DNA from: a virus | Strand: one strand, 5' to 3' | DNA length: 43,385 bases | UHGV virus genome: UHGV-0217911 | Shown here: piece by piece, positions 2,750-21,915 of the stretch | How the letters are laid out: each line of letters opens with the position of its first letter | Position numbering within the stretch: the stretch's first letter is position 1 | The notes under the pieces: model-generated | Told to the model about the DNA's origin: nothing | The model's input: the letters and a program-made list of their open reading frames with translations, nothing else | Database searches by the model: none | Translations under genes and position numbers: made by a program

Positions 2750-4161
2750 CCTCGATTAATCCTATCTTTGAACCGTTCATTGAGGCGCATCGCTACAAAG
2801 TCGCCAAAGGCGGTCGAGGTAGCGGTAAGTCATGGGCAATTGCGAGGCTGCTTGTTGAAGCGGCGCGTCGGCAGCCTGTGCGCATCCTCTGTGCTCGTGA
2901 ACTGCAAAACAGTATCAGCGATTCGGTAATCCGGTTGCTTGAAGACACCATCGAGCGGGAAGGGTATTCGGCTGAGTTTGAAATTCAGCGTTCAATGATT
3001 CGTCATCTCGGAACGAATGCTGAATTCATGTTCTACGGCATCAAAAACAACCCGACGAAGATTAAATCGCTAGAAGGCATTGATATTTGCTGGGTGGAAG
3101 AAGCGGAAGCGGTAACGAAGGAATCATGGGATATCCTGATACCAACCATCCGTAAGCCGTTCTCTGAAATATGGGTGAGCTTTAACCCGAAAAACATCCT
3201 CGACGATACCTATCAGCGATTCGTAGTAAACCCTCCCGATGATATTTGTCTGCTGACGGTGAACTACACCGACAACCCGCACTTTCCTGAAGTTCTCCGT
3301 CTGGAGATGGAAGAGTGCAAACGCAGAAATCCGACACTGTATCGTCACATCTGGCTTGGTGAGCCGGTAAGCGCAAGTGATATGGCAATCATCAAACGAG
3401 AATGGCTTGAAGCTGCAACCGATGCGCACAAGAAACTCGGATGGAAAGCGAAAGGCGCTGTTGTCTCTGCGCATGACCCATCAGATACAGGGCCAGATGC
3501 TAAAGGTTACGCATCGCGTCACGGTTCGGTAGTTAAGCGCATTGCTGAAGGTCTGCTGATGGACATCAACGAGGGGGCTGACTGGGCTACTTCGCTGGCG
3601 ATTGAAGACGGTGCTGACCACTACTTGTGGGATGGTGATGGTGTCGGTGCAGGGCTACGCAGACAGACAACGGAAGCGTTCTCCGGTAAGAAAATCACCG
3701 CCACGATGTTCAAGGGCAGCGAATCGCCATTTGATGAAGATGCACCGTATCAGGCCGGAGCATGGGCTGATGAAGTCGTACAGGGTGACAACGTTCGTAC
3801 TATTGGCGATGTATTCCGCAATAAGCGAGCGCAATTCTATTACGCGCTGGCTGACAGGCTGTATCTGACATATCGGGCGGTTGTCCACGGTGAGTATGCA
3901 GACCCCGACGACATGCTGAGTTTCGACAAAGAAGCAATAGGCGAGAAGATGCTGGAGAAGCTGTTTGCAGAACTGACGCAGATTCAGCGCAAATTCAATA
4001 ATAACGGGAAGCTGGAGCTTATGACTAAGGTCGAAATGAAGCAGAAGCTCGGTATTCCATCTCCTAACCTGGCTGATGCGTTGATGATGTGTATGCATTG
4101 CCCGGAGTCGGCTGCGCAACCCGACTATTCCAGTTACTCAATTCCTTGTGGTGTGGGTTGA
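2746..4161 (+). CDS. Terminase large subunit (ATPase/nuclease)
   Basis: Walker A motif GGRGSGKS near the N-terminus, 471 aa, positioned between small terminase and portal. Confidence 0.9.
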   Translation: MTSINPIFEPFIEAHRYKVAKGGRGSGKSWAIARLLVEAARRQPVRILCARELQNSISDSVIRLLEDTIEREGYSAEFEIQRSMIRHLGTNAEFMFYGIKNNPTKIKSLEGIDICWVEEAEAVTKESWDILIPTIRKPFSEIWVSFNPKNILDDTYQRFVVNPPDDICLLTVNYTDNPHFPEVLRLEMEECKRRNPTLYRHIWLGEPVSASDMAIIKREWLEAATDAHKKLGWKAKGAVVSAHDPSDTGPDAKGYASRHGSVVKRIAEGLLMDINEGADWATSLAIEDGADHYLWDGDGVGAGLRRQTTEAFSGKKITATMFKGSESPFDEDAPYQAGAWADEVVQGDNVRTIGDVFRNKRAQFYYALADRLYLTYRAVVHGEYADPDDMLSFDKEAIGEKMLEKLFAELTQIQRKFNNNGKLELMTKVEMKQKLGIPSPNLADALMMCMHCPESAAQPDYSSYSIPCGVG

Positions 4162-13355: not shown

Positions 13356-14732
13356 ATGGCTACTTGGCAACAAGGAATCAACTCAGGCGGCTTTCTTGCT
13401 GGTATCGGTGGGCAAAACTCAAATGCGCCAAAGGCAAGTGATGTAAGTGAGGCGTTGGCCTATATTCGCCAGAACAACGAAATGGAGCGCTCAGGTCGCA
13501 ATAACATCGGCCTTCAGGCGTTGCAGGGACTTGGTAGTGTCGCTCAAACATATAAAGCCGCAAAGCAACAGGAAGCGGATGCTGCATTCCAAAAAGAATA
13601 TGCGGCAGCCATCCAGTCAGGTGATCGACAGCAGGTGCGAGATCTGATGACCAAATATCCTCGTCAATTAGAGAAGATTCAGTCTGGTATGAAGTGGGCA
13701 GACGAAGACCAGCGCAATTCTATCGGCACCTTAGCAGCTGGCGCACGCCTTGCGGCCTCGTCTCCAGAAGCAATGCAATCATGGCTGCAAAACAACGCCA
13801 AGGAACTGGCGCGCGTCGGCGTTGACCCTAACAACGTTGCTCAGATGTATCAGCAGAATCCTTCAGGATTTGGTGAGTTTGTTGATCACCTTGGAATGGC
13901 CGCGCTTGGTCCAATTGATTACTTCAATGTTCAGGACAAGATGGCTGGTCGTGAGATTGATCGCGGAAAACTTGCAGAGACAATCCGCAGCAATCAGGCT
14001 GGCGAGGCGCTAACAGCACGTGGTCAGAATATCACGATGCGCGGTCAGGATTTATCGATGCAGAGAGCATCAATGAAAGGATCGGTTGGGAATAATGAGC
14101 GTACAGTTCAGTTAGCAGATGGCAGAACTGTAACGGTAGGCGGGAAGCTTCACGGCGCTGGGGCTAATGCGTTCTACGAAGGTATCGACAACGAGGGGAA
14201 TATGGTTCGCGTCCCTGCTGGCTCTATTGCCGCTCCGGCTACATCGGCAGCAAGCGCGCAGAATTACGCAATGAAGAAAGATCTTGATGCAATTTCTGGT
14301 GCATCAATTGACGATCTTGGCTTCATGACTGGCATTACAGGCTCTTCAGGTTCTCCTGCTCTTGGTGCAGATATTCGTAGCCGTGCATCTGGTGGTGATC
14401 AGAGGAAACTATACAACGCTGCACAGCGAATCCAAGGAAAGATGCAGAATCAGGGCATTGCAGCAGCCAGAGACATGGGGGCATCCGGTATCAACACCGT
14501 TGCAGAAGCAAAGATGTATTTTCAAGGTATGCCACAGGTTGATTTCTCAAGCCCTGAAGCACTGCAACAATCAATGCGCGACATTCAGCAATATACCGAC
14601 AATTACAACCAGCAATATAACGTTAATGTCGGTAATGGAGGGAAGAAATCATCAATGCAACAGCCGCCTACTCAGCAATCAGCAGGAGGTAGCTACACGT
14701 CAAAATCAGGCATTCAATTTACGGTGGAATGA
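13356..14732 (+). CDS. Ejection protein (P22 gp20-like)
   Basis: 458 aa; synteny and composition. Confidence 0.7.
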
Positions 14733-16618
14733 TGAAAGTAACTGCAAACGGTAAGACATTTACCTTCCCTGATGGTACGAGCACGGAAGATATTGGCACC
14801 GCCATTGATGAGTATTTTGCTGGTCAGGCTGTTCAGCAACAAACAGTTAATCAGGCCAATAATGAACCAGCACGTGAAGAACCATCATTGATGCAACAAG
14901 CTGGCGATTGGCTCACAGGTGGTCAAAGTGCAGGGCAAATTGCAGAGCAGGCTGGTCGTGGTCTGGTAAACATACCATTTGACGTATTACAGGGTGGCGC
15001 AAGTCTGATTAATGCAATCAGTCAGGGGCTTGGTGGGCCAAAAGTATTGGATGATGTCTATCGTCCAGTCGATCGACCGACAGACTCTTACGCGCAAGCC
15101 GGTGAAACAATTGGTGGGTATCTCCTGCCAATTGGCACAGCGGCAAAAGCTGCTGGAGCGACAGCAAAGCTCGCAGGAGACATCGGTTCCGCAGGAAACA
15201 TGATTGCAGGTTCTCTTGCTGATGCCGCAAATCAGAAAGGCGATTTCGCACAAAATGCAGCTAAAAATGCCGGAGTTAACCTTGCCGCTCAGGGTGTTCT
15301 TTCCGCAGCAGCAAAGGGAATAGGGCGTGGAATAACGGCTATAAAAGGTGATATTGCGCCAGAAGTGGCGAAGAAAATTGCCACATCAGAATCGATGGGC
15401 GTGACACCAATGACATCTGATGTTATCCCGCCGAAAAATGCTTTCACTCGTGGCCTTACTCAGGATGCCGAGGGTGCTTTGCTCGGGACAGGCTCAAAGC
15501 GAGCGGAGCAATATGCAACGCGTAGTAAACTGGTAAGCAATTATTTTGACCGTTTTGGTGAGTACAACCCTGATGATGTGGTGAAATCTCTTACCACCAC
15601 GTTAAGGGGGCGGAAGGATGCCGCTGGCGCTGTTATCAATGACGTCACCAATAAAATGGGTAATGCCGCAGTTGATACCACAAATACCATGAATGCTCTG
15701 AATACAGCGATCGCAAGACAGGAACGGCTTGGGACGTCTGCCAATCAAAGCCTGCTTACATCCTTGCGTAACCTACGTGAAGAATTAGCAAACCCTGCAA
15801 CTGATTTGGATGTTACGTTTGATCTCTTGCGTCAGCACAGAACAGCATTTAGATCTAATGTTCAGGGAGATGCTATGGTCTTCCCCAACCAGGCAAAAGC
15901 AGCTACCAATATGGTAGAGAATGCAATGTCAAAAGACCTTCGTAACGCAGTTGCTAAAAACCTCGGTGCATCAGACGCAGCAAAATACCTTAAAGCAAAT
16001 TCCGATTATGCAAACGTTTATAATAAGGTGCTTAATAAAAACATTGCCAACAAGCTCAACAAGGCAAGCAGTGAAGCCAGTCCTGAACTTATAAATACCG
16101 TTGTATTAAGCAGAAAACCATCTGACGTGAAACGAATCTGGAGCGCACTGGATGATAAGGGGAAAGATGCTATGCGTGCAGCTTACGTCAGCAAAATAGC
16201 GGAAAAGGCCGGTGACTCTCCAGCCAAGTTCATCACGGAAGTTAATAAGCTGAAATCTCAGTCAGGCGGTGAAATTTACAACACTATTTTTTCTGGAAAG
16301 CACATGAAAGAACTTGATGCTCTTCATGAAGTTCTACAGCAAACAGCAAGATCAGACACCGCAAATGTAGTAACTCAGACGGGGCAATCGCAAGCCAACA
16401 GGATAAGGACGATTGGCGCAACTACGACTCTTGGCGTATCAATGGGGCTTGAGGCTGGTTTCGGTGCAATGATGCGCTTGTATGAATCCAAAGCAGCAAG
16501 GAATGCGCTCTTACGTCTGGCAAACACTAAAGCTGGAACGCCAGCTTATGAAAGAGCGCTAAATCAGGCGGCTACTGCCGTGCGCCCGCTCTTAGTTAAC
16601 GAAGCTACCCGGCAGTAG
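14729..16618 (+). CDS. Ejection protein (P22 gp16-like)
   Basis: 629 aa; synteny and overlapping start with the upstream gene. Confidence 0.7.
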
Positions 16619-16640
16619 CACTGTAAGCCAAGGACGGCAT

Positions 16641-17135
16641 TTATTTTATAGTTTTTATGAATTCTTTATTAAATCCCTTCGCTTCTCCGGGGTATCTTCC
16701 GAAGACAATTTTTATAAAAACAGAAAAAATAAAGATAGCAACGCTTAACAACAATTGCAGTATCATTGGAACCCAAAGAACTACAGGCTCTATATTCATG
16801 AAACCAAATATTCTTCCGGCGATCATGGCGAAGTACCACACTGTTATCAGCAAACTTAGTGGCATATGAATTACTGATATTACCAATCCAAGAGCATCAG
16901 TAATTCTGTTTTCAAATTTTTCAGGGGAAAACTTTTCTTTAAGGTAATTCAGTGCGCAGGCCTCATTCTCTGGATTTTCAGCATTTTTCCCTATAGCAAT
17001 AGAAATCTCAGATATCCTTGATTCAATTCTTTTACGTTTAATAAAACTAGAAAAAAAGAACCACGCAATCTGCAACCCTATCCCCAGAAATAGAGTTGCG
17101 GCAACTAGCACAGCGTAACTCATAGAATCAGACAC
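16641..17135 (-). CDS. Multi-pass inner-membrane protein in the SieA position (candidate superinfection-exclusion protein)
   Basis: AT-rich minus-strand ORF with three or four hydrophobic helices, between the ejection genes and the immI region. A strong SD (AAGGAGG at 17141-17147) precedes an in-frame GTG at 17135; an ATG at 17123 is the alternative start. Confidence 0.55.
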
Positions 17136-17291
17136 ACCAACCTCCTTAGTTTTGCGCAGGATACCAGATGATAATGTGTAGTTGGAGTAGCGCGGTTGTA
17201 ATGCAAGCATTTTGTTTTGGTTTTATGCTTGCTTGTATGTGTGTACAGTGCATATAATGCAAGCATACATCACAATAAAGGTGCTTGCATT

Positions 17292-18278
17292 ATGACTGAA
17301 AAGAAAAGTGGCGAAGGGAAAGCTAAGGGCGGGATCGCTCGCGCAAAGTCGCTGACTAAAGAGCAGCGTTCTGAAATAGCAAAGAAAGCAGCGGCAAAAC
17401 GATGGGAAGGTAAGCCACTAAGAGCGATCAGAAAGGGTAACTTCATTGATGATTTCGGCATTGATGCAGAATGTTACGTACTTGATGATAATGATAAAAC
17501 GGTTGTAGTTAGTAAAACTGGTCTGGCTAAATTACTAGGAATCGGTGAGCATGGTAGGGATGTAGACCGTTTTCTAAATACGAATTATATGGCTGATTTT
17601 GTTGATCCATTTCTGCTAGAAAAATTCAAAAAACCTCTTATTTTTCAATGGAGAAGTCCGGTCCCAAACTCAGCCCCAAATCCACTCGCTGATGAGGCTC
17701 ATGGTTACGATATTGCCCTTATTGGTGATATAGCCACAGCAATGATTAATGCCGATCGAGCTGGCGCACTACCGCCTTCAAGATCAAAATCTGCCAGCCT
17801 TGCCCAAAGACTTGTTACCGCATCAATGAAAGCAGGGCTTAAAGGACTTGGTTATGCTATTGCAGGATATCGACCTGAAGTACAGGAGGTTATTGATTCC
17901 TTCAAGGCCTTTGTTCGTGAAGAGGCGAGGCAGTATGAAAAGGAATTTCCAGATGAGCTATATGAGGAGTGGTATCGACTGTACGGCCTGAACAGGCCAG
18001 AGAAAGGACGTCCAATTCGTTTTGGGCAACTAACCAACATGCAGATATACACTCCGCTAGCAAAGAGTAAAGGTAAAATCCTTGAACAGATTCGAGCCAG
18101 CCGAGACGAGAACGGAAAACAATCTGATAAGTTGCACCTGTTCCTTTCTGAAATTGGTGTCAAGGCTTTGCGTCAGCATATCGGTAAGCTTCTTGGTGTC
18201 GCAGCGATGAGCGAGACAAGAGAAGAATACGAAAAAGGAATAGAAAAGGTTTTTGGAAGAATAAAACCAGAAATCTAA
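17292..18278 (+). CDS. Hypothetical phage protein (hkcC-position of the immI region)
   Basis: ATG at 17292 lies behind a TATAAT box and repeated ATGCAAGCAT motifs; 328 aa with a basic N-terminus (GGIARAKSLTKEQRSEIAKKAAAKRW). Confidence 0.6.
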   Translation: MTEKKSGEGKAKGGIARAKSLTKEQRSEIAKKAAAKRWEGKPLRAIRKGNFIDDFGIDAECYVLDDNDKTVVVSKTGLAKLLGIGEHGRDVDRFLNTNYMADFVDPFLLEKFKKPLIFQWRSPVPNSAPNPLADEAHGYDIALIGDIATAMINADRAGALPPSRSKSASLAQRLVTASMKAGLKGLGYAIAGYRPEVQEVIDSFKAFVREEARQYEKEFPDELYEEWYRLYGLNRPEKGRPIRFGQLTNMQIYTPLAKSKGKILEQIRASRDENGKQSDKLHLFLSEIGVKALRQHIGKLLGVAAMSETREEYEKGIEKVFGRIKPEI

Positions 18279-18281
18279 TTA

Positions 18282-18309
18282 TAAAACCCACCGTCAGGTG
18301 GGTTTTTTG
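18282..18309. terminator. Bidirectional rho-independent terminator between the hypothetical gene and mnt
   Basis: ACCCACC-gtca-GGTGGGT stem flanked by an A-run and a T-run. Confidence 0.6.
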
Positions 18310-18533
18310 TTTTCTTGCATGTTCCTCAGCGTCTCAAGCAGCGCATCCCTGAATTTGTCAGCCTCTTTCTGAGCAAATTCATTGCTATTAAGCGATCTAC
18401 CACAAACAGCATCTTCGATAATCTGTATTATTTCAGCATTCATGGAACGCTTGTTATGTTGCGCCCTGGCTTTAACCTTTGCCTTTAACTCTTTGGAAAT
18501 CCTAATATTTATTTGCGGCTCTTCGCGTGACAT
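18294..18533 (-). CDS. mnt: Mnt-like ribbon-helix-helix repressor
   Basis: 79 aa; the N-terminal beta-strand/helix pattern INIRISKELKAKVKARAQHNKRSMNAEIIQIIEDAV is Arc/Mnt-like, and the gene is divergent from arc-ant. Confidence 0.7.
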   Translation of the reverse strand: MSREEPQINIRISKELKAKVKARAQHNKRSMNAEIIQIIEDAVCGRSLNSNEFAQKEADKFRDALLETLRNMQENKKPT

Positions 18534-18585
18534 ACCACCTCCATAGCATTTTGGTGATATTACTATTGCATCACTGCGATCACAA

Positions 18586-18604
18586 TGGTATAACGGTTAT
18601 ACCA
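18586..18604. promoter_or_regulatory. Perfect 19-bp palindrome TGGTATAACGGTTATACCA (candidate Arc/Mnt operator)
   Basis: Perfect 9-1-9 inverted repeat in the mnt/arc divergent intergenic region, about 18 bp upstream of the arc ATG. Confidence 0.5.
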
Positions 18605-18621
18605 AATTGATTGGAGGTAAT

Positions 18622-18795
18622 ATGATAGTCAAGTCAGACGCACCAAAGTACCCTTTGCGCATCCCATTAGAGGTTAAGTTAGCAATCGAGAAGTCAGCGA
18701 AAGAAAATGGTCGCTCAATAAATACCGAGATGGTAATGCGGTTGGTGGATAGTTTAAGGCGGGATAGTTCTAAAGGTAATCTAGCAAAAAGTTGA
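18622..18795 (+). CDS. arc: Arc-like ribbon-helix-helix repressor
   Basis: 57 aa; PLRIPLEVKLAIEKSAKENGRSINTEMVMRL matches the Arc RHH pattern, with GGAGG 5 nt upstream of the ATG. Confidence 0.7.
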   Translation: MIVKSDAPKYPLRIPLEVKLAIEKSAKENGRSINTEMVMRLVDSLRRDSSKGNLAKS

Positions 18796-18857
18796 AGCCC
18801 CAACTGCGGTAACAGTCAGGGCTTCGTTATCAACAAATCGGCTTAGGAAATATTGAC

Positions 18858-19736
18858 ATGAAAAGTATAGCAAAGGCACAAAACGATTTCACCATCTTCA
18901 AATTCGGCGACAGTGAAATCCGCGTCATCAACAAGTGCGGTGAGCCGTGGTTTGTAGCTAAAGATGTTTGTGATGCTTTAGCTTTGACTAACTCACGCAA
19001 GGCGCTTACTGCACTTGATGACGATGAAAAGGGAGTAACTTTAAGTTACACCCTTGGTGGTGAGCAGAATCTAAGCATTGTGAGCGAATCAGGTATGTAT
19101 ACATTGGTTCTGCGCTGCCGCGATGCAGTCAATAAAGGTTCAGTCCCACACAAATTCCGCAAGTGGGTAACAGCAGAAGTTCTGCCTTCAATTCGCAAAC
19201 ATGGCGAGTATGTTAAAGGAAAGAAAACCACTGTTGAGGAAAGAACACCGCTACGCGATGCAGTAAACATGCTGGTAGGAAAGAAAGGACTTCGCTATGA
19301 CGATGCATACAATATGGTTCATCAGCGTTTTGGTATTGACAGCATTGATGAACTTTCAATTGAACAAATCCCGCTGGCAGTAGAGTACATCCACAGGGTA
19401 GTGCTTGAAGGTGAATTTATCGGCAAACAAGAGAAGAAAACCAACGAGCTTTCTGCAAAAGAAGCAAACAGCCTTGTATGGTTATGGGATTATGCCAACC
19501 GCTCACAGGCATTATTCCGCGAACTGTATCTGGCGCTAAAACAAATTCAATCGAACTATTCCGGCAGATGCTACGACTATGGCCATGAGTTCTCGTATGT
19601 TATCGGAATGGCGAGAGACGTTTTAATCAATCACACACGAGATGTTGATATTAATGAGCCAGACGGACCAACGAATCTTTCCGCATGGATGAGACTTAAG
19701 AATAAAGAATTACCTCCTTCAGTACATAACTACTGA
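18858..19736 (+). CDS. ant: Antirepressor (Ant) with Bro-N/AntA-like N-terminal domain
   Basis: 292 aa; [15 protein letters not shown]...[18 protein letters not shown] is the Bro-N pattern, and the gene follows arc. Confidence 0.8.
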
Positions 19737-19754
19737 CAGATAACCAACGCAACG

Positions 19755-19779
19755 ACCCAGCTTCGGCTGGGTTTTTTTA
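19755..19779 (+). terminator. Rho-independent terminator after ant
   Basis: CCCAGC-ttcg-GCTGGG hairpin followed by TTTTTTT. Confidence 0.65.
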
Positions 19780-19836
19780 TGCCCAAAATTCATCGTAGCC
19801 ATGCTGCGGCGATTCCTTGTATCTGGAGCAAATTAA

Positions 19837-21915
19837 ATGACAGACATTACAGCTAATGTTGTAGTGAGTATGCCTTCGCAACTCTTCACTATGGCTCGTT
19901 CTTTTAAAGCGGTTGCCAATGGCAAAATTTATATCGGTAAAATTGACACTGACCCGGTAAATCCTGAAAACCAGATTCAGGTTTATGTGGAGAACGAAGA
20001 TGGTTCTCACGTTCCTGTTGCACAGCCAATCATCATTAACTCTGGCGGGTATCCTGTATATAACGGACAGATTGCCAAATTCGTTACCGTGCAAGGCCAT
20101 TCTATGGCTGTTTATGATGCATATGGTGCGCAGCAGTTTTATTTTCCTAATGTGCTGAAGTATGACCCTGATCAGTTTCAGAAGAGGTTGGCATCCTTTG
20201 ATGATGGTGATGGGGATGAATTAGTGTCGGTGAAACAACCATTCCCCGGAGCAGCAAATCAAACTCAACACCAAAAGAACCAACAAATCATTGATGTTCT
20301 TGACTTCGGTGCTCATCCATCGAATGCTGACAATAAAGTAGCTCTGCAATTTGCGCTAGATGCAATATATAGCATTGGAGGAGGTACACTACAGTTTTCA
20401 CTACCAGGCATATATACTTTGCTTTCTGAGTTGCAAATAAAATCAAATACTCACCTAAAGATGACTGATGGCGTAACCATTAAACGTAATTTTTCTAATG
20501 ACGTCATGCTGAGAATAAGCCCTAATACTGGCACTAACATTAAAATAACAGGCGGAATACTAGATGGAGGAGGACAAGACCACCCTACAGATCCTTTTGA
20601 CATCATTGCAGCCTCCTCACCAAGAAATCTTTCTATTGTTGGAGTAACATTTCTTGATGTAGTCGATTTTCATGCTGTAGATATTGCTGACGGGCAAGGG
20701 GTGATTATAAGAGACTGTAAGTTTCTTGGCTTCAAACCACTTTCCAACCGAAATTATTCAGAAGCGATCCAGTTAGATCCGGGGATTGAATCTCTTGGCG
20801 ATTATTACCCAAACATCAATGTTCTTGTTGATAACTGTTATTTTGGTTCAAATCCACAAAATACCACCACTGGGTTTGGGGCGTGGGGGGCGGGGGTTGG
20901 GAACCATGCTAATTCATATGGGAATCAGGACAAAAATATAAGGGTCATAAACTGCAGGTTCGATGGAATGCTCTTTGCCGGGGTAAGGGTTTTCAACTGG
21001 TATGATTGGGTGGTTAGCGGATGCTCTTTCTATAACAGTACCGCGCGAGGAGTTCATGTAACCCCATTCCCATCATCATCAAAACCACAGGGGGCAAGGA
21101 GGGGGCGCATTGTTGGCAATTATTTTGAAGGCGTTAGATCCCCGATTCTTCTGGCTGCACCTACATATCCATATACAGATACATCAGATGCATTTCATGA
21201 AGATATCGTAATATCCAACAATTCCATGTTTATTACAGAGTCTCAATCATATGCAGTAGACGCAAGATGGGTTTCAGGACTAACTGTCACTGGAAACACA
21301 GCAAGAGGAGGAATCGGTTTTTTCAAAGGTGATTTTATTAATAAATCAATCATCTCTAATAATGAATACGATTCAGGAACATCAAGTTCTTTATGGATTT
21401 CTGAAACTAATGCAGAAGAATTTATAGGGTCTGGTTTTTCGCATGATGTTGTAATTTCTAGCAACATCTTTAGAAACATTTCCCTGCATGGGATTCATAT
21501 TAATGGTAAATATTCAAATGTTACTATTCAATCAAACATTATAGTTGGGGTTTCTACCGCAGATAATAACCATAATGGCATACGAATTGACTCTGGTGCA
21601 GAAAATGTAATTGTTAGTTCAAATCAAATTCGTGATGGCGTTGCAAATAATAAACCATCAGTTGGTATATTTGCTACATCAAGCTGTAAGAGCGTGTCAT
21701 TTATAGGGAATGTTTCATTTGGAACATCAGCCACACAGAATAATCAAGCTACAGATAAAAGCTCACTTGTGATATTTGGGCAAGAAGGCAACCCAACATC
21801 TAGCGGAGTTGGAGCACCAGTTGGTTCTATTTACACTCGTTCTGATGGAGGTGGAAATACAGTACTTTATATAAAGGAAAGCAACACAAATGCTACAGGT
21901 TGGGTTAATAAGTAA
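19837..21915 (+). CDS. Tailspike protein: conserved P22-type N-terminal head-binding domain plus a divergent beta-helix receptor-binding domain
   Basis: The first ~110 aa ([13 protein letters not shown]...[25 protein letters not shown]...[24 protein letters not shown]) are P22 gp9-like. The remainder is AT-rich and unlike P22, with repetitive beta-helix-like segments. Confidence 0.85.

Follow-up and report, generated by a model that had tools for sequence, protein, structure and literature searches.

Promoter-embedded multi-operator autoregulation is well known from temperate phages, where lambda cI acts at OR/PRM and Mnt and Arc of phage P22 act at Pant/Pmnt. Among transposable elements, insertion sequences (ISs) of the IS1 family occur with passenger genes, and InsA of IS1 represses the transposase promoter. 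Here, we describe an array of four 10-bp repeats (decamers) in the viral genome UHGV-0217911, a stretch of 43,385 nucleotides (nt) that is referred to below as the window and is numbered from its first nucleotide. The array lies between the leftward (minus-strand) gene sieA and a rightward (plus-strand) gene coding for a protein with a P63C domain. Comparison of viral and bacterial genomes points to this array as the promoter-operator of the P63C gene, which it accompanies across phyla, and suggests that the P63C protein may be its own regulator.

Two described systems are close to this locus. SieA of P22 resides in the inner membrane and is necessary and sufficient to keep P22-like phages from injecting their DNA, and three transmembrane (TM) helices are predicted for SieA of type A (Leavitt et al. 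2024, PMC10883804). In the same study, the exclusion phenotype was shown for the SieA proteins of P22 and HS1, mutations allowing escape from P22 SieA were located in gp16 and gp20, in the C-terminal region of each, and 106 bp upstream of HS1 sieA were enough for exclusion. A cytoplasmic motif, FxRYPxEAxxFNK, was reported there to be the most strongly conserved feature among SieA types A to C. The second system is BstA of prophage BTP1, whose gene follows cI; its aba element, 63 bp long and DNA based, extends across the start codon of bstA (Owen et al. 2021, PMC8585504).

RESULTS

Four decamers and a promoter built into them

A preliminary description of the locus, made from the sequence, had reported four copies of a repeat core in alternating orientation between the two genes, one of them overlapping a TATAAT box just upstream of an ATG at 17292. 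We located the decamers at 17201-17210 (site 1, forward, an exact ATGCAAGCAT), 17225-17234 (site 2, reverse, reading ATGCTTGCTT on the plus strand, 9/10 matches), 17257-17266 (site 3, forward, again an exact ATGCAAGCAT), and 17281-17290 (site 4, reverse, reading GTGCTTGCAT on the plus strand, 9/10 matches). The start-to-start spacings are 24, 32, and 24 bp. The alternation of orientation, the TATAAT box and its overlap with one repeat (site 3), and the ATG were all as claimed, and so were the positions of sites 1, 2, and 4; the third copy had been placed at 17267-17276, ten positions off.

In the whole window, we counted five decamers with at most one mismatch compared to 6.3 expected, and the total count alone is thus not significant. 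Four of these five, though, fall inside 90 bp, for which about 0.013 would be expected (Poisson P of about 1e-9, from the window counts), and no second decamer pair was found anywhere in the 43-kb window.

The array appears to have a promoter built into it. A -35 element, TTGCTT (17229-17234, plus strand), forms the 3' part of site 2, and a -10 element, TATAAT (17253-17258, plus strand), shares its last two bases with the first two of site 3. The spacer between them is 18 nt, and transcription would be expected to start near 17265, at a position covered by site 3. A Shine-Dalgarno (SD) sequence for the P63C gene, AAAGG, lies at 17277-17281 (plus strand), and site 4 is situated between it and the ATG at 17292. 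From this ATG, the P63C gene runs to 18278 on the plus strand and codes for 328 amino acids. A hairpin at 18283-18306 that is flanked by runs of A and of T, one on each side, closes both the P63C cassette and an mnt-like ribbon-helix-helix gene that converges on it (18533->18294, minus strand); this hairpin is likely a bidirectional terminator. As read from the sequence, promoter, gene, and terminator together have the anatomy of a "moron" cassette.

Recurrence of the array with the P63C gene

P22 has no decamers: past the position corresponding to 17166 of the window, its sequence runs into the annotated PsieA. A weak DNA match of window positions 17224-17299 was found in ST104-like Salmonella phages. 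There, orf23 is a P63C gene (product 32% identical) that lies directly past the cI terminator, between cI and gene 24, and no sieA is nearby. The region upstream of orf23 reads ATGCAAGCAC-N14-ATGCTTGCTT-N22-ATGCAAGCAC-N15-GTGCTTGCAT-A-ATG. Sites and spacings are thus like those of the window, while the spacer sequences are unrelated.

Viral contigs were scanned by DNA alone with the pattern ATGCAAGCA-N10-22-TGCTTGCAT, which returned at least 120 loci. Among the matches listed, about 100 of 120 loci had a P63C homologue directly beside the pattern, and the protein identities ranged from 100% to 23%. All four sites (at least 8/10 matches each) were present in 50 of 64 distinct viral upstream regions, including the pair that was outside the search pattern.

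A minority of the loci returned by the same scan had no P63C gene (L007, L059, and L095; L013 and L120; L037, L105, and L106; L099). Some are AT-rich contigs in which the inverted pair stands by other genes, among them a Gram-positive-looking pair whose loop contains TTGACA. These loci may be chance matches or unrelated operators.

We also scanned bacterial genomes, one per species, in a protein-first manner: loci were fetched by protein, independently of the DNA sites. The resulting 80 loci came from Gamma-, Beta-, Alpha-, and Deltaproteobacteria, Acidobacteriota, Myxococcota, Firmicutes, Chloroflexi, and others. Four sites were found in 45 loci, three in 12, one in 5, and none in 18, and the canonical forward-reverse-forward-reverse chain was seen in 45 of the 80. 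Within the 210 bp surrounding the start, sites occurred at 13.3 per kb versus 0.22 per kb elsewhere, which is close to random, a 60-fold difference.

The geometry of the promoter is kept together with the sites. In the protein-first set, positions 5 to 10 of site 2 read TTGC(A/T)(T/A), with TTGC present in 45/45 loci, and a -10 hexamer ends at position 2 of site 3 (T in 32/45, A in 37/45, any base, A in 27/45, A in 36/45, and T in 40/45). The distance between sites 2 and 3 is 30 to 33 bp, which gives a promoter spacer of 16 to 19 nt, and the remaining two spacings are 20 to 25 bp. A purine-rich SD sequence lies between sites 3 and 4 in 37/45 loci. The start codon follows site 4 by 0 to 2 nt or is contained in it (TGCTTGCATG); the latter arrangement was observed in 19 of the 50 distinct viral upstream regions having all four sites. 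In the viral set, an A is conserved three bases ahead of site 3 and has no counterpart ahead of site 1. The core TGCAAGCA is essentially invariant, and the orientation of its center is fixed, with AA in sites 1 and 3 and TT in sites 2 and 4. The sites thus overlap core promoter elements in the window, and this geometry is kept in 45 of the 80 protein-first loci.

We assign the array to the P63C gene because the same four sites recur upstream of distant homologues while the spacers diverge. Judged by these comparisons, the array is the signature promoter-operator of this gene, conserved across phyla. Its repeats are real and certainly functional, and they are almost certainly operators that lie over a promoter and bind a protein. 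The preliminary description had viewed them as operators of lysogen-expressed genes, which agrees with operators lying over a promoter. An assignment to sieA does not hold, since P22 sieA is without the repeats and the repeats travel with the P63C gene.

The P63C protein and its N-terminal motif

The product of the rightward gene matched PF10546 (P63C) over residues 205 to 292 (52.3 bits versus a cut-off of 26.1, E = 9e-14) and PHROG 2384 (E = 1e-92), and 1422 P63C homologues were found. Its N terminus carries a basic motif, GKAKGGIARAKSLTKEQRSEIAKKAAAKRW (residues 9 to 38), with the consensus GGxARAxxL[ST]xExRxEIAxKAAxxRW. Pfam searches with the N-terminal motif and with the central domain, each alone, returned no family and only a sub-threshold resemblance of KGG-repeat type. 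This motif, which no Pfam model covers, also occurs as a free-standing module in about 188 representative clusters, mostly of proteins of 50 to 130 amino acids. It is sometimes present in two tandem copies and was once found fused to a Cro/C1 helix-turn-helix (HTH) domain (e.g., P0123, P0129, P0136, and P0124). In the literature, we found no paper on P63C function, and we met the decamer only in unrelated primer or oligonucleotide contexts.

The P63C gene is the sole gene common to the three contexts in which the array was found, i.e., immI, immC (after cI-like repressor genes), and ISs; a cI-like repressor gene is a recurrent neighbor in viral loci. An acidobacterial subgroup of P63C genes is without decamers and has TATACTTGCYCGGGCA ... 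CTCGGGCAAGTATA over the promoter, with inner GAAGTCAAG / CTTGACTTC (L144, L146, L150, L151, L156, L158, L161, L162, L166, and L193). The N-terminal motif of this subgroup is also distinct (KGGEARA..LS.ERRREIARAAIQARWEKAGK). Three more loci (L131, L177, and L199) have, instead of decamers, a promoter-overlapping ATGCTTGACA / TGTCAAGCAT with GCTAAGCAT.

P63C cassettes in IS1-family elements

An IS1-family DDE transposase (PF03400) was encoded within 37 of the 80 bacterial loci, and in about 20 of them its gene is divergent and lies just upstream of site 1. We delimited IS elements of about 2.5 to 2.8 kb that carry the P63C cassette as a passenger and consist, between their ends, of the transposase gene, the array, the P63C gene, and a tail of 270 to 550 bp (L137, 2035-4561; L149, 2001-4519; L153, 777-3534; L163, 1590-4279; and L172, 1671-4306). 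Their terminal inverted repeats are 19 to 22 bp long (GGTAGTG..TCAGTTTGAA), and candidate target-site duplications were seen, e.g., one of 8 bp (AAGACCCG) in L153. The tail past the P63C gene contains a small convergent open reading frame (ORF) of 67 to 78 amino acids, whose C terminus again has a GGxARA...IAxKAAxxRW motif. Other bacterial loci adjoin a SWIM plus DDE_Tnp_1 transposase, and in the window itself no transposase was found.

In seven loci (L134, L137, L143, L165, L170, L185, and L200), TTGCAT, which is site 1 on the opposite strand, is separated by exactly 17 nt from a -10-like hexamer that belongs to the divergent transposase gene, and would be the -35 element there. The array is thus a control region for both directions, at least in those IS elements. 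Several of the divergent transposase transcripts would be leaderless. By its sequence contexts, the P63C cassette is both a phage moron and a passenger on transposable elements.

The leftward gene sieA and its exchangeable slot

The preliminary description had noted an AT-rich minus-strand gene for a polytopic membrane protein at the sieA position and had named it a candidate for superinfection exclusion. The G+C content is indeed 36 to 39% in the sieA region versus 41 to 48% in the late genes to the left, and the identification proved sound. The gene has 93.5% nucleotide identity to P22 sieA, and the protein shares 152 of 164 residues with P22 SieA (93% amino acid identity over the full length, E = 3e-114); it also matched PHROG 7745, "SieA-like" (E = 3e-106). 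The protein carries the FxRYPxEAxxFNK motif (compared with PMC10883804), hydropathy showed hydrophobic blocks at residues 5 to 32 and 78 to 150, and the gene lies between the gene 16 homologue and the tailspike gene. With these features, the gene is, by homology, a sieA orthologue of type A, a close allele of a characterized gene, and already known. Like P22 SieA, its product would reside in the inner membrane and stop DNA delivery by incoming P22-like phages, and the block would arise from interference with the gp20/gp16 ejection-protein conduit.

The minus-strand ORF in the window spans 16641-17210 and would give 189 amino acids from an ATG at 17210, inside site 1. An AAGGAGG SD sequence (17147->17141) lies 5 nt before a GTG at 17135, from which the length is 164 amino acids, as for P22; an alternative start is the ATG at 17123. 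We prefer GTG 17135 (gene coordinates 16641-17135, minus strand) as the most likely start because of this SD sequence and because unrelated prophage genes diverge exactly past that GTG. The ATG at 17210 was ruled out on the same two grounds and by the 164-residue length of P22 SieA.

Homology to P22 ends at 17166, 31 bp upstream of the GTG. The leader between them (17136-17166, minus strand), with its SD sequence and GTG, precedes P22 sieA and, in identical form, no fewer than eight small leftward genes of various prophages that are unrelated to one another and mostly code for membrane or secreted proteins (L002, L004, L008, L020, L058, L076, L080, L093, L101, and L117). Occupants of this leftward position include SieA of type A, SieA of type B (212 amino acids, 28% identical), single- and multi-TM proteins, and one signal peptide protein. 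Window positions 17133-18278, comprising the leader, the intergenic region, and the P63C gene, are 99% identical in many E. coli prophages with other leftward genes, and the recombination joint in enteric prophages is the leftward start codon. Because 17133-18278 is kept beside differing leftward genes, the control region and the rightward gene form the conserved unit, with sieA in a slot that, from these alignments, looks exchangeable for envelope or exclusion genes.

In the P22 reference record, we noticed an unannotated ORF of 121 amino acids with an HExxH motif (HECAH) at 13861-14226 of BK000583 (plus strand; 3150-3515 in our extract L001). It begins exactly at the end of the homology to the window and overlaps the annotated sieA promoter.

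As to the expression of sieA, HS1, a prophage of E. coli HS, has the leader from ACACATTATCATC on in common with the window, and TTGATA-17-CATTAT is present there. By this comparison, CATTAT at 17176->17171 (minus strand) is likely the -10 element of the leftward sieA promoter in the window; the -35 zone that goes with it (17201->17191) is a weak one and adjoins site 1. HS1 was considered as a test of whether sieA expression needs the array and was rejected: it has another upstream neighbor and no array, and it bears only on the shared -10 element and leader. Co-control of sieA by the array is plausible because site 1 abuts the leftward -35 zone and the same site is the divergent -35 element in IS1-like elements; it is thus possible that the array also controls sieA.

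Layout of the surrounding region

Window positions 13356-21915 correspond to the right end of the late operon and the immI region of a P22-like prophage. The late genes gp20 (13356-14732) and gp16 (14729-16618, the gene 16 homologue) lie to the left of sieA. Beyond the P63C gene and the mnt-like gene, we found the Mnt/Arc control region (18534-18606), an arc-like gene (18607-18795), a full-length sar antisense RNA (18790-18856, minus strand; Rfam RF00262, 70 bits), Ant (18858-19736), and the tailspike gene (19837-21915, gene 9 homologue). The Mnt/Arc control region contains a 17-bp palindrome, GGTATAACGGTTATACC, at 18587-18603, which differs from the Mnt operator of P22. The region between sieA and the P63C gene is best explained as a control region from which two accessory genes of a P22-like prophage diverge, at the immI end of that prophage.

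DISCUSSION

Proposed autoregulation by the P63C protein

The reading that we favor, and consider moderately probable, is an autoregulatory operator, through which the P63C protein controls its own gene and possibly also the divergent one. We infer that the P63C protein is its own regulator because its gene is the sole one shared by all contexts, because a host factor is implausible, because variants of the motif and of the operator differ together, and because the N-terminal motif exists as a free-standing module. In this model, the P63C protein would bind the decamers, probably via its basic two-helix motif GGxARAxxLxxExRxEIAxKAAxxRW, with one dimer on each inverted pair. With sites 2 and 3 occupied, RNA polymerase would be kept out, and cooperativity would come from sites 1 and 4. 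The P63C gene could in this manner keep its own level low and steady in the lysogen. Binding might also modulate sieA, given that site 1 abuts the weak leftward -35 zone.

Several observations weigh against this reading. No decamers were found in 18 of the 80 protein-first homologues, and the co-variation of motif variants with operator variants was clear in one subgroup only. The viral set was picked by one site pair, and the conservation of that pair in it is circular, a circularity that the protein-first set avoids. Concerning the protein, no solved structural relative and no known DNA-binding fold or family was detected, and the AlphaFold model is of moderate quality, with a predicted local distance difference test (pLDDT) score of 74 overall and of 58 to 71 over the motif. 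As for the leftward gene, a consensus sigma-70 scan of 17124-17300 gave no sieA promoter above the threshold, and a relaxed scan gave weak candidates only.

Other explanations of the repeats

The location of the array in immI, beside mnt-like and arc-like genes, and the contact of site 1 with the putative leftward -35 zone would also fit operators for Mnt, Arc, or a host factor that coordinate the lysogen expression of sieA and its neighbor. These binders had been suggested in the preliminary description, but we consider them very unlikely. The Mnt/Arc control region of the window has a palindrome of unrelated sequence and contains no decamer. Moreover, no mnt or arc gene adjoins the array where it lies beside cI (ST104-like phages) or within IS1-like elements (Acidobacteriota, Alphaproteobacteria, and others), and a single host factor serving all of these phyla is implausible. 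A different possibility is that the inverted repeats act as nucleic acid structures, be it as mRNA hairpins that hide the SD sequence and the AUG (translational control or attenuation) or as DNA cruciforms. Indeed, 17195-17300 folds into a nested hairpin (-46.8 kcal/mol, z = -6.8) in which site 1 pairs with site 4 and site 2 with site 3, and the hairpin of sites 3 and 4 (-16.4 kcal/mol, z = -4.2) has the SD sequence in its loop and the AUG at the foot of its stem. However, the -10 element ends inside site 3, so that the expected transcript begins at the 3' end of this site and is without the 5' arm; from the expected start onward, the RNA is unstructured (z = +1.3). The arms are invariant across a huge divergence rather than co-varying, and at their only variable position (position 10 of site 3 and position 1 of site 4) nonpairing C/A combinations occur. 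Pairing alone does not demand the fixed orientation of the central AA/TT either, the partial complementarity of the spacers in the window is not present in ST104, and Rfam returned for 17124-17300 only a sub-threshold match to a plant microRNA (24.6 bits versus a gathering score of 105). A role as nucleic acid structures is thus unlikely.

The array could furthermore be a DNA "self" element like aba of BstA, instead of or beside an operator, with P63C as a prophage- or IS-borne anti-phage effector that would be titrated or switched off by array copies amplified as the DNA of the element itself replicates. The P63C gene often lies directly past a cI-type repressor gene, where bstA and rexAB are also situated, and it has the moron architecture, with its own promoter and terminator. 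Just as aba spans the start codon of bstA (PMC8585504), sites 3 and 4 span the start codon in the window. On the other hand, no known defense family was found for the P63C protein in PADLOC, NCBIfam, or the PHROG function labels, and Pfam showed neither a KilA-N domain nor similarity to BstA. The location in IS elements is not obviously a defense context, and plain autoregulation already accounts for the promoter overlap. We regard the aba-like role as rather doubtful; it is compatible with autoregulation and not opposed to it. Finally, the array might be a recombination or transposition site that moves the cassette between genomes, in keeping with its presence in at least three unrelated contexts and with a similarity between contexts that begins near site 1. 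This is extremely improbable: the array is internal in the IS1-like elements, whose ends are different inverted repeats of 19 to 22 bp with target-site duplications, the joint of the enteric prophages is the leftward start codon, away from the decamers, and the P63C protein shows no recombinase signature.

Significance of the array

Autoregulation by the P63C protein can be embedded in a broader and more speculative proposal, to which we assign a low probability. The P63C cassette would be an unrecognized self-contained mobile module whose N-terminal motif reads TGCAAGCA, and the array would be at the same time the operator of this gene and of the divergent one (sieA in the window, the transposase gene in IS elements) and a DNA "self" mark by which an activity against phages or mobile elements is tuned, in the manner of aba and BstA. 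A regulatory role of P63C in transposition would likewise be an inference from the IS contexts.

While sieA adds nothing new here, the value of the locus lies in the repeats. A large uncharacterized family, P63C, gains a precise and testable cis element, a 10-bp motif present four times in a fixed geometry, from enteric prophages to Acidobacteriota. This makes it possible to test P63C as a DNA-binding autoregulator, its basic N-terminal motif as a new DNA-binding module, and the co-regulation of the exclusion gene slot. The intergenic region, and not sieA, is the conserved unit around which P22-like prophages exchange small envelope genes.

Comparison with known systems

The array is apparently undescribed, while the kind of element is familiar. 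At the P22 sieA locus, the position between the gene 16 homologue and the tailspike gene, the SD sequence, the leader, and the FxRYPxEAxxFNK motif are all as in the window. In contrast, the P22 sequence beyond 17166, including the annotated PsieA, is replaced in the window by the P63C control region, and the right-hand neighbor is the P63C gene instead of the other ORF and orf59a of P22. With BstA and aba, the locus shares a prophage accessory gene that has its own terminator and a short repeat-bearing DNA element across its own start codon. However, BstA is KilA-N-like and the P63C protein is unrelated to it in sequence and domain, and aba has terminal direct CCCGCC repeats whereas the array consists of four inverted decamers.

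With regard to the IS1 family, the P63C cassette of many bacterial genomes lies between terminal inverted repeats, with the array over the divergent transposase promoter, whereas the cassette of the window is a phage moron. The operators of lambda cI and of Mnt and Arc of P22 resemble the array most in their arrangement, as several short near-palindromic sites over the -35 and -10 elements in a divergent intergenic region that serves prophage-expressed genes. The sites in the window differ in being directional 10-bp units that form two inverted pairs, 22 to 25 bp from center to center, and in that one of them covers the start codon. Their putative binder is without a recognized HTH or ribbon-helix-helix domain. 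Moreover, and unusually for phage operators, the sequence of the sites is conserved across phyla.

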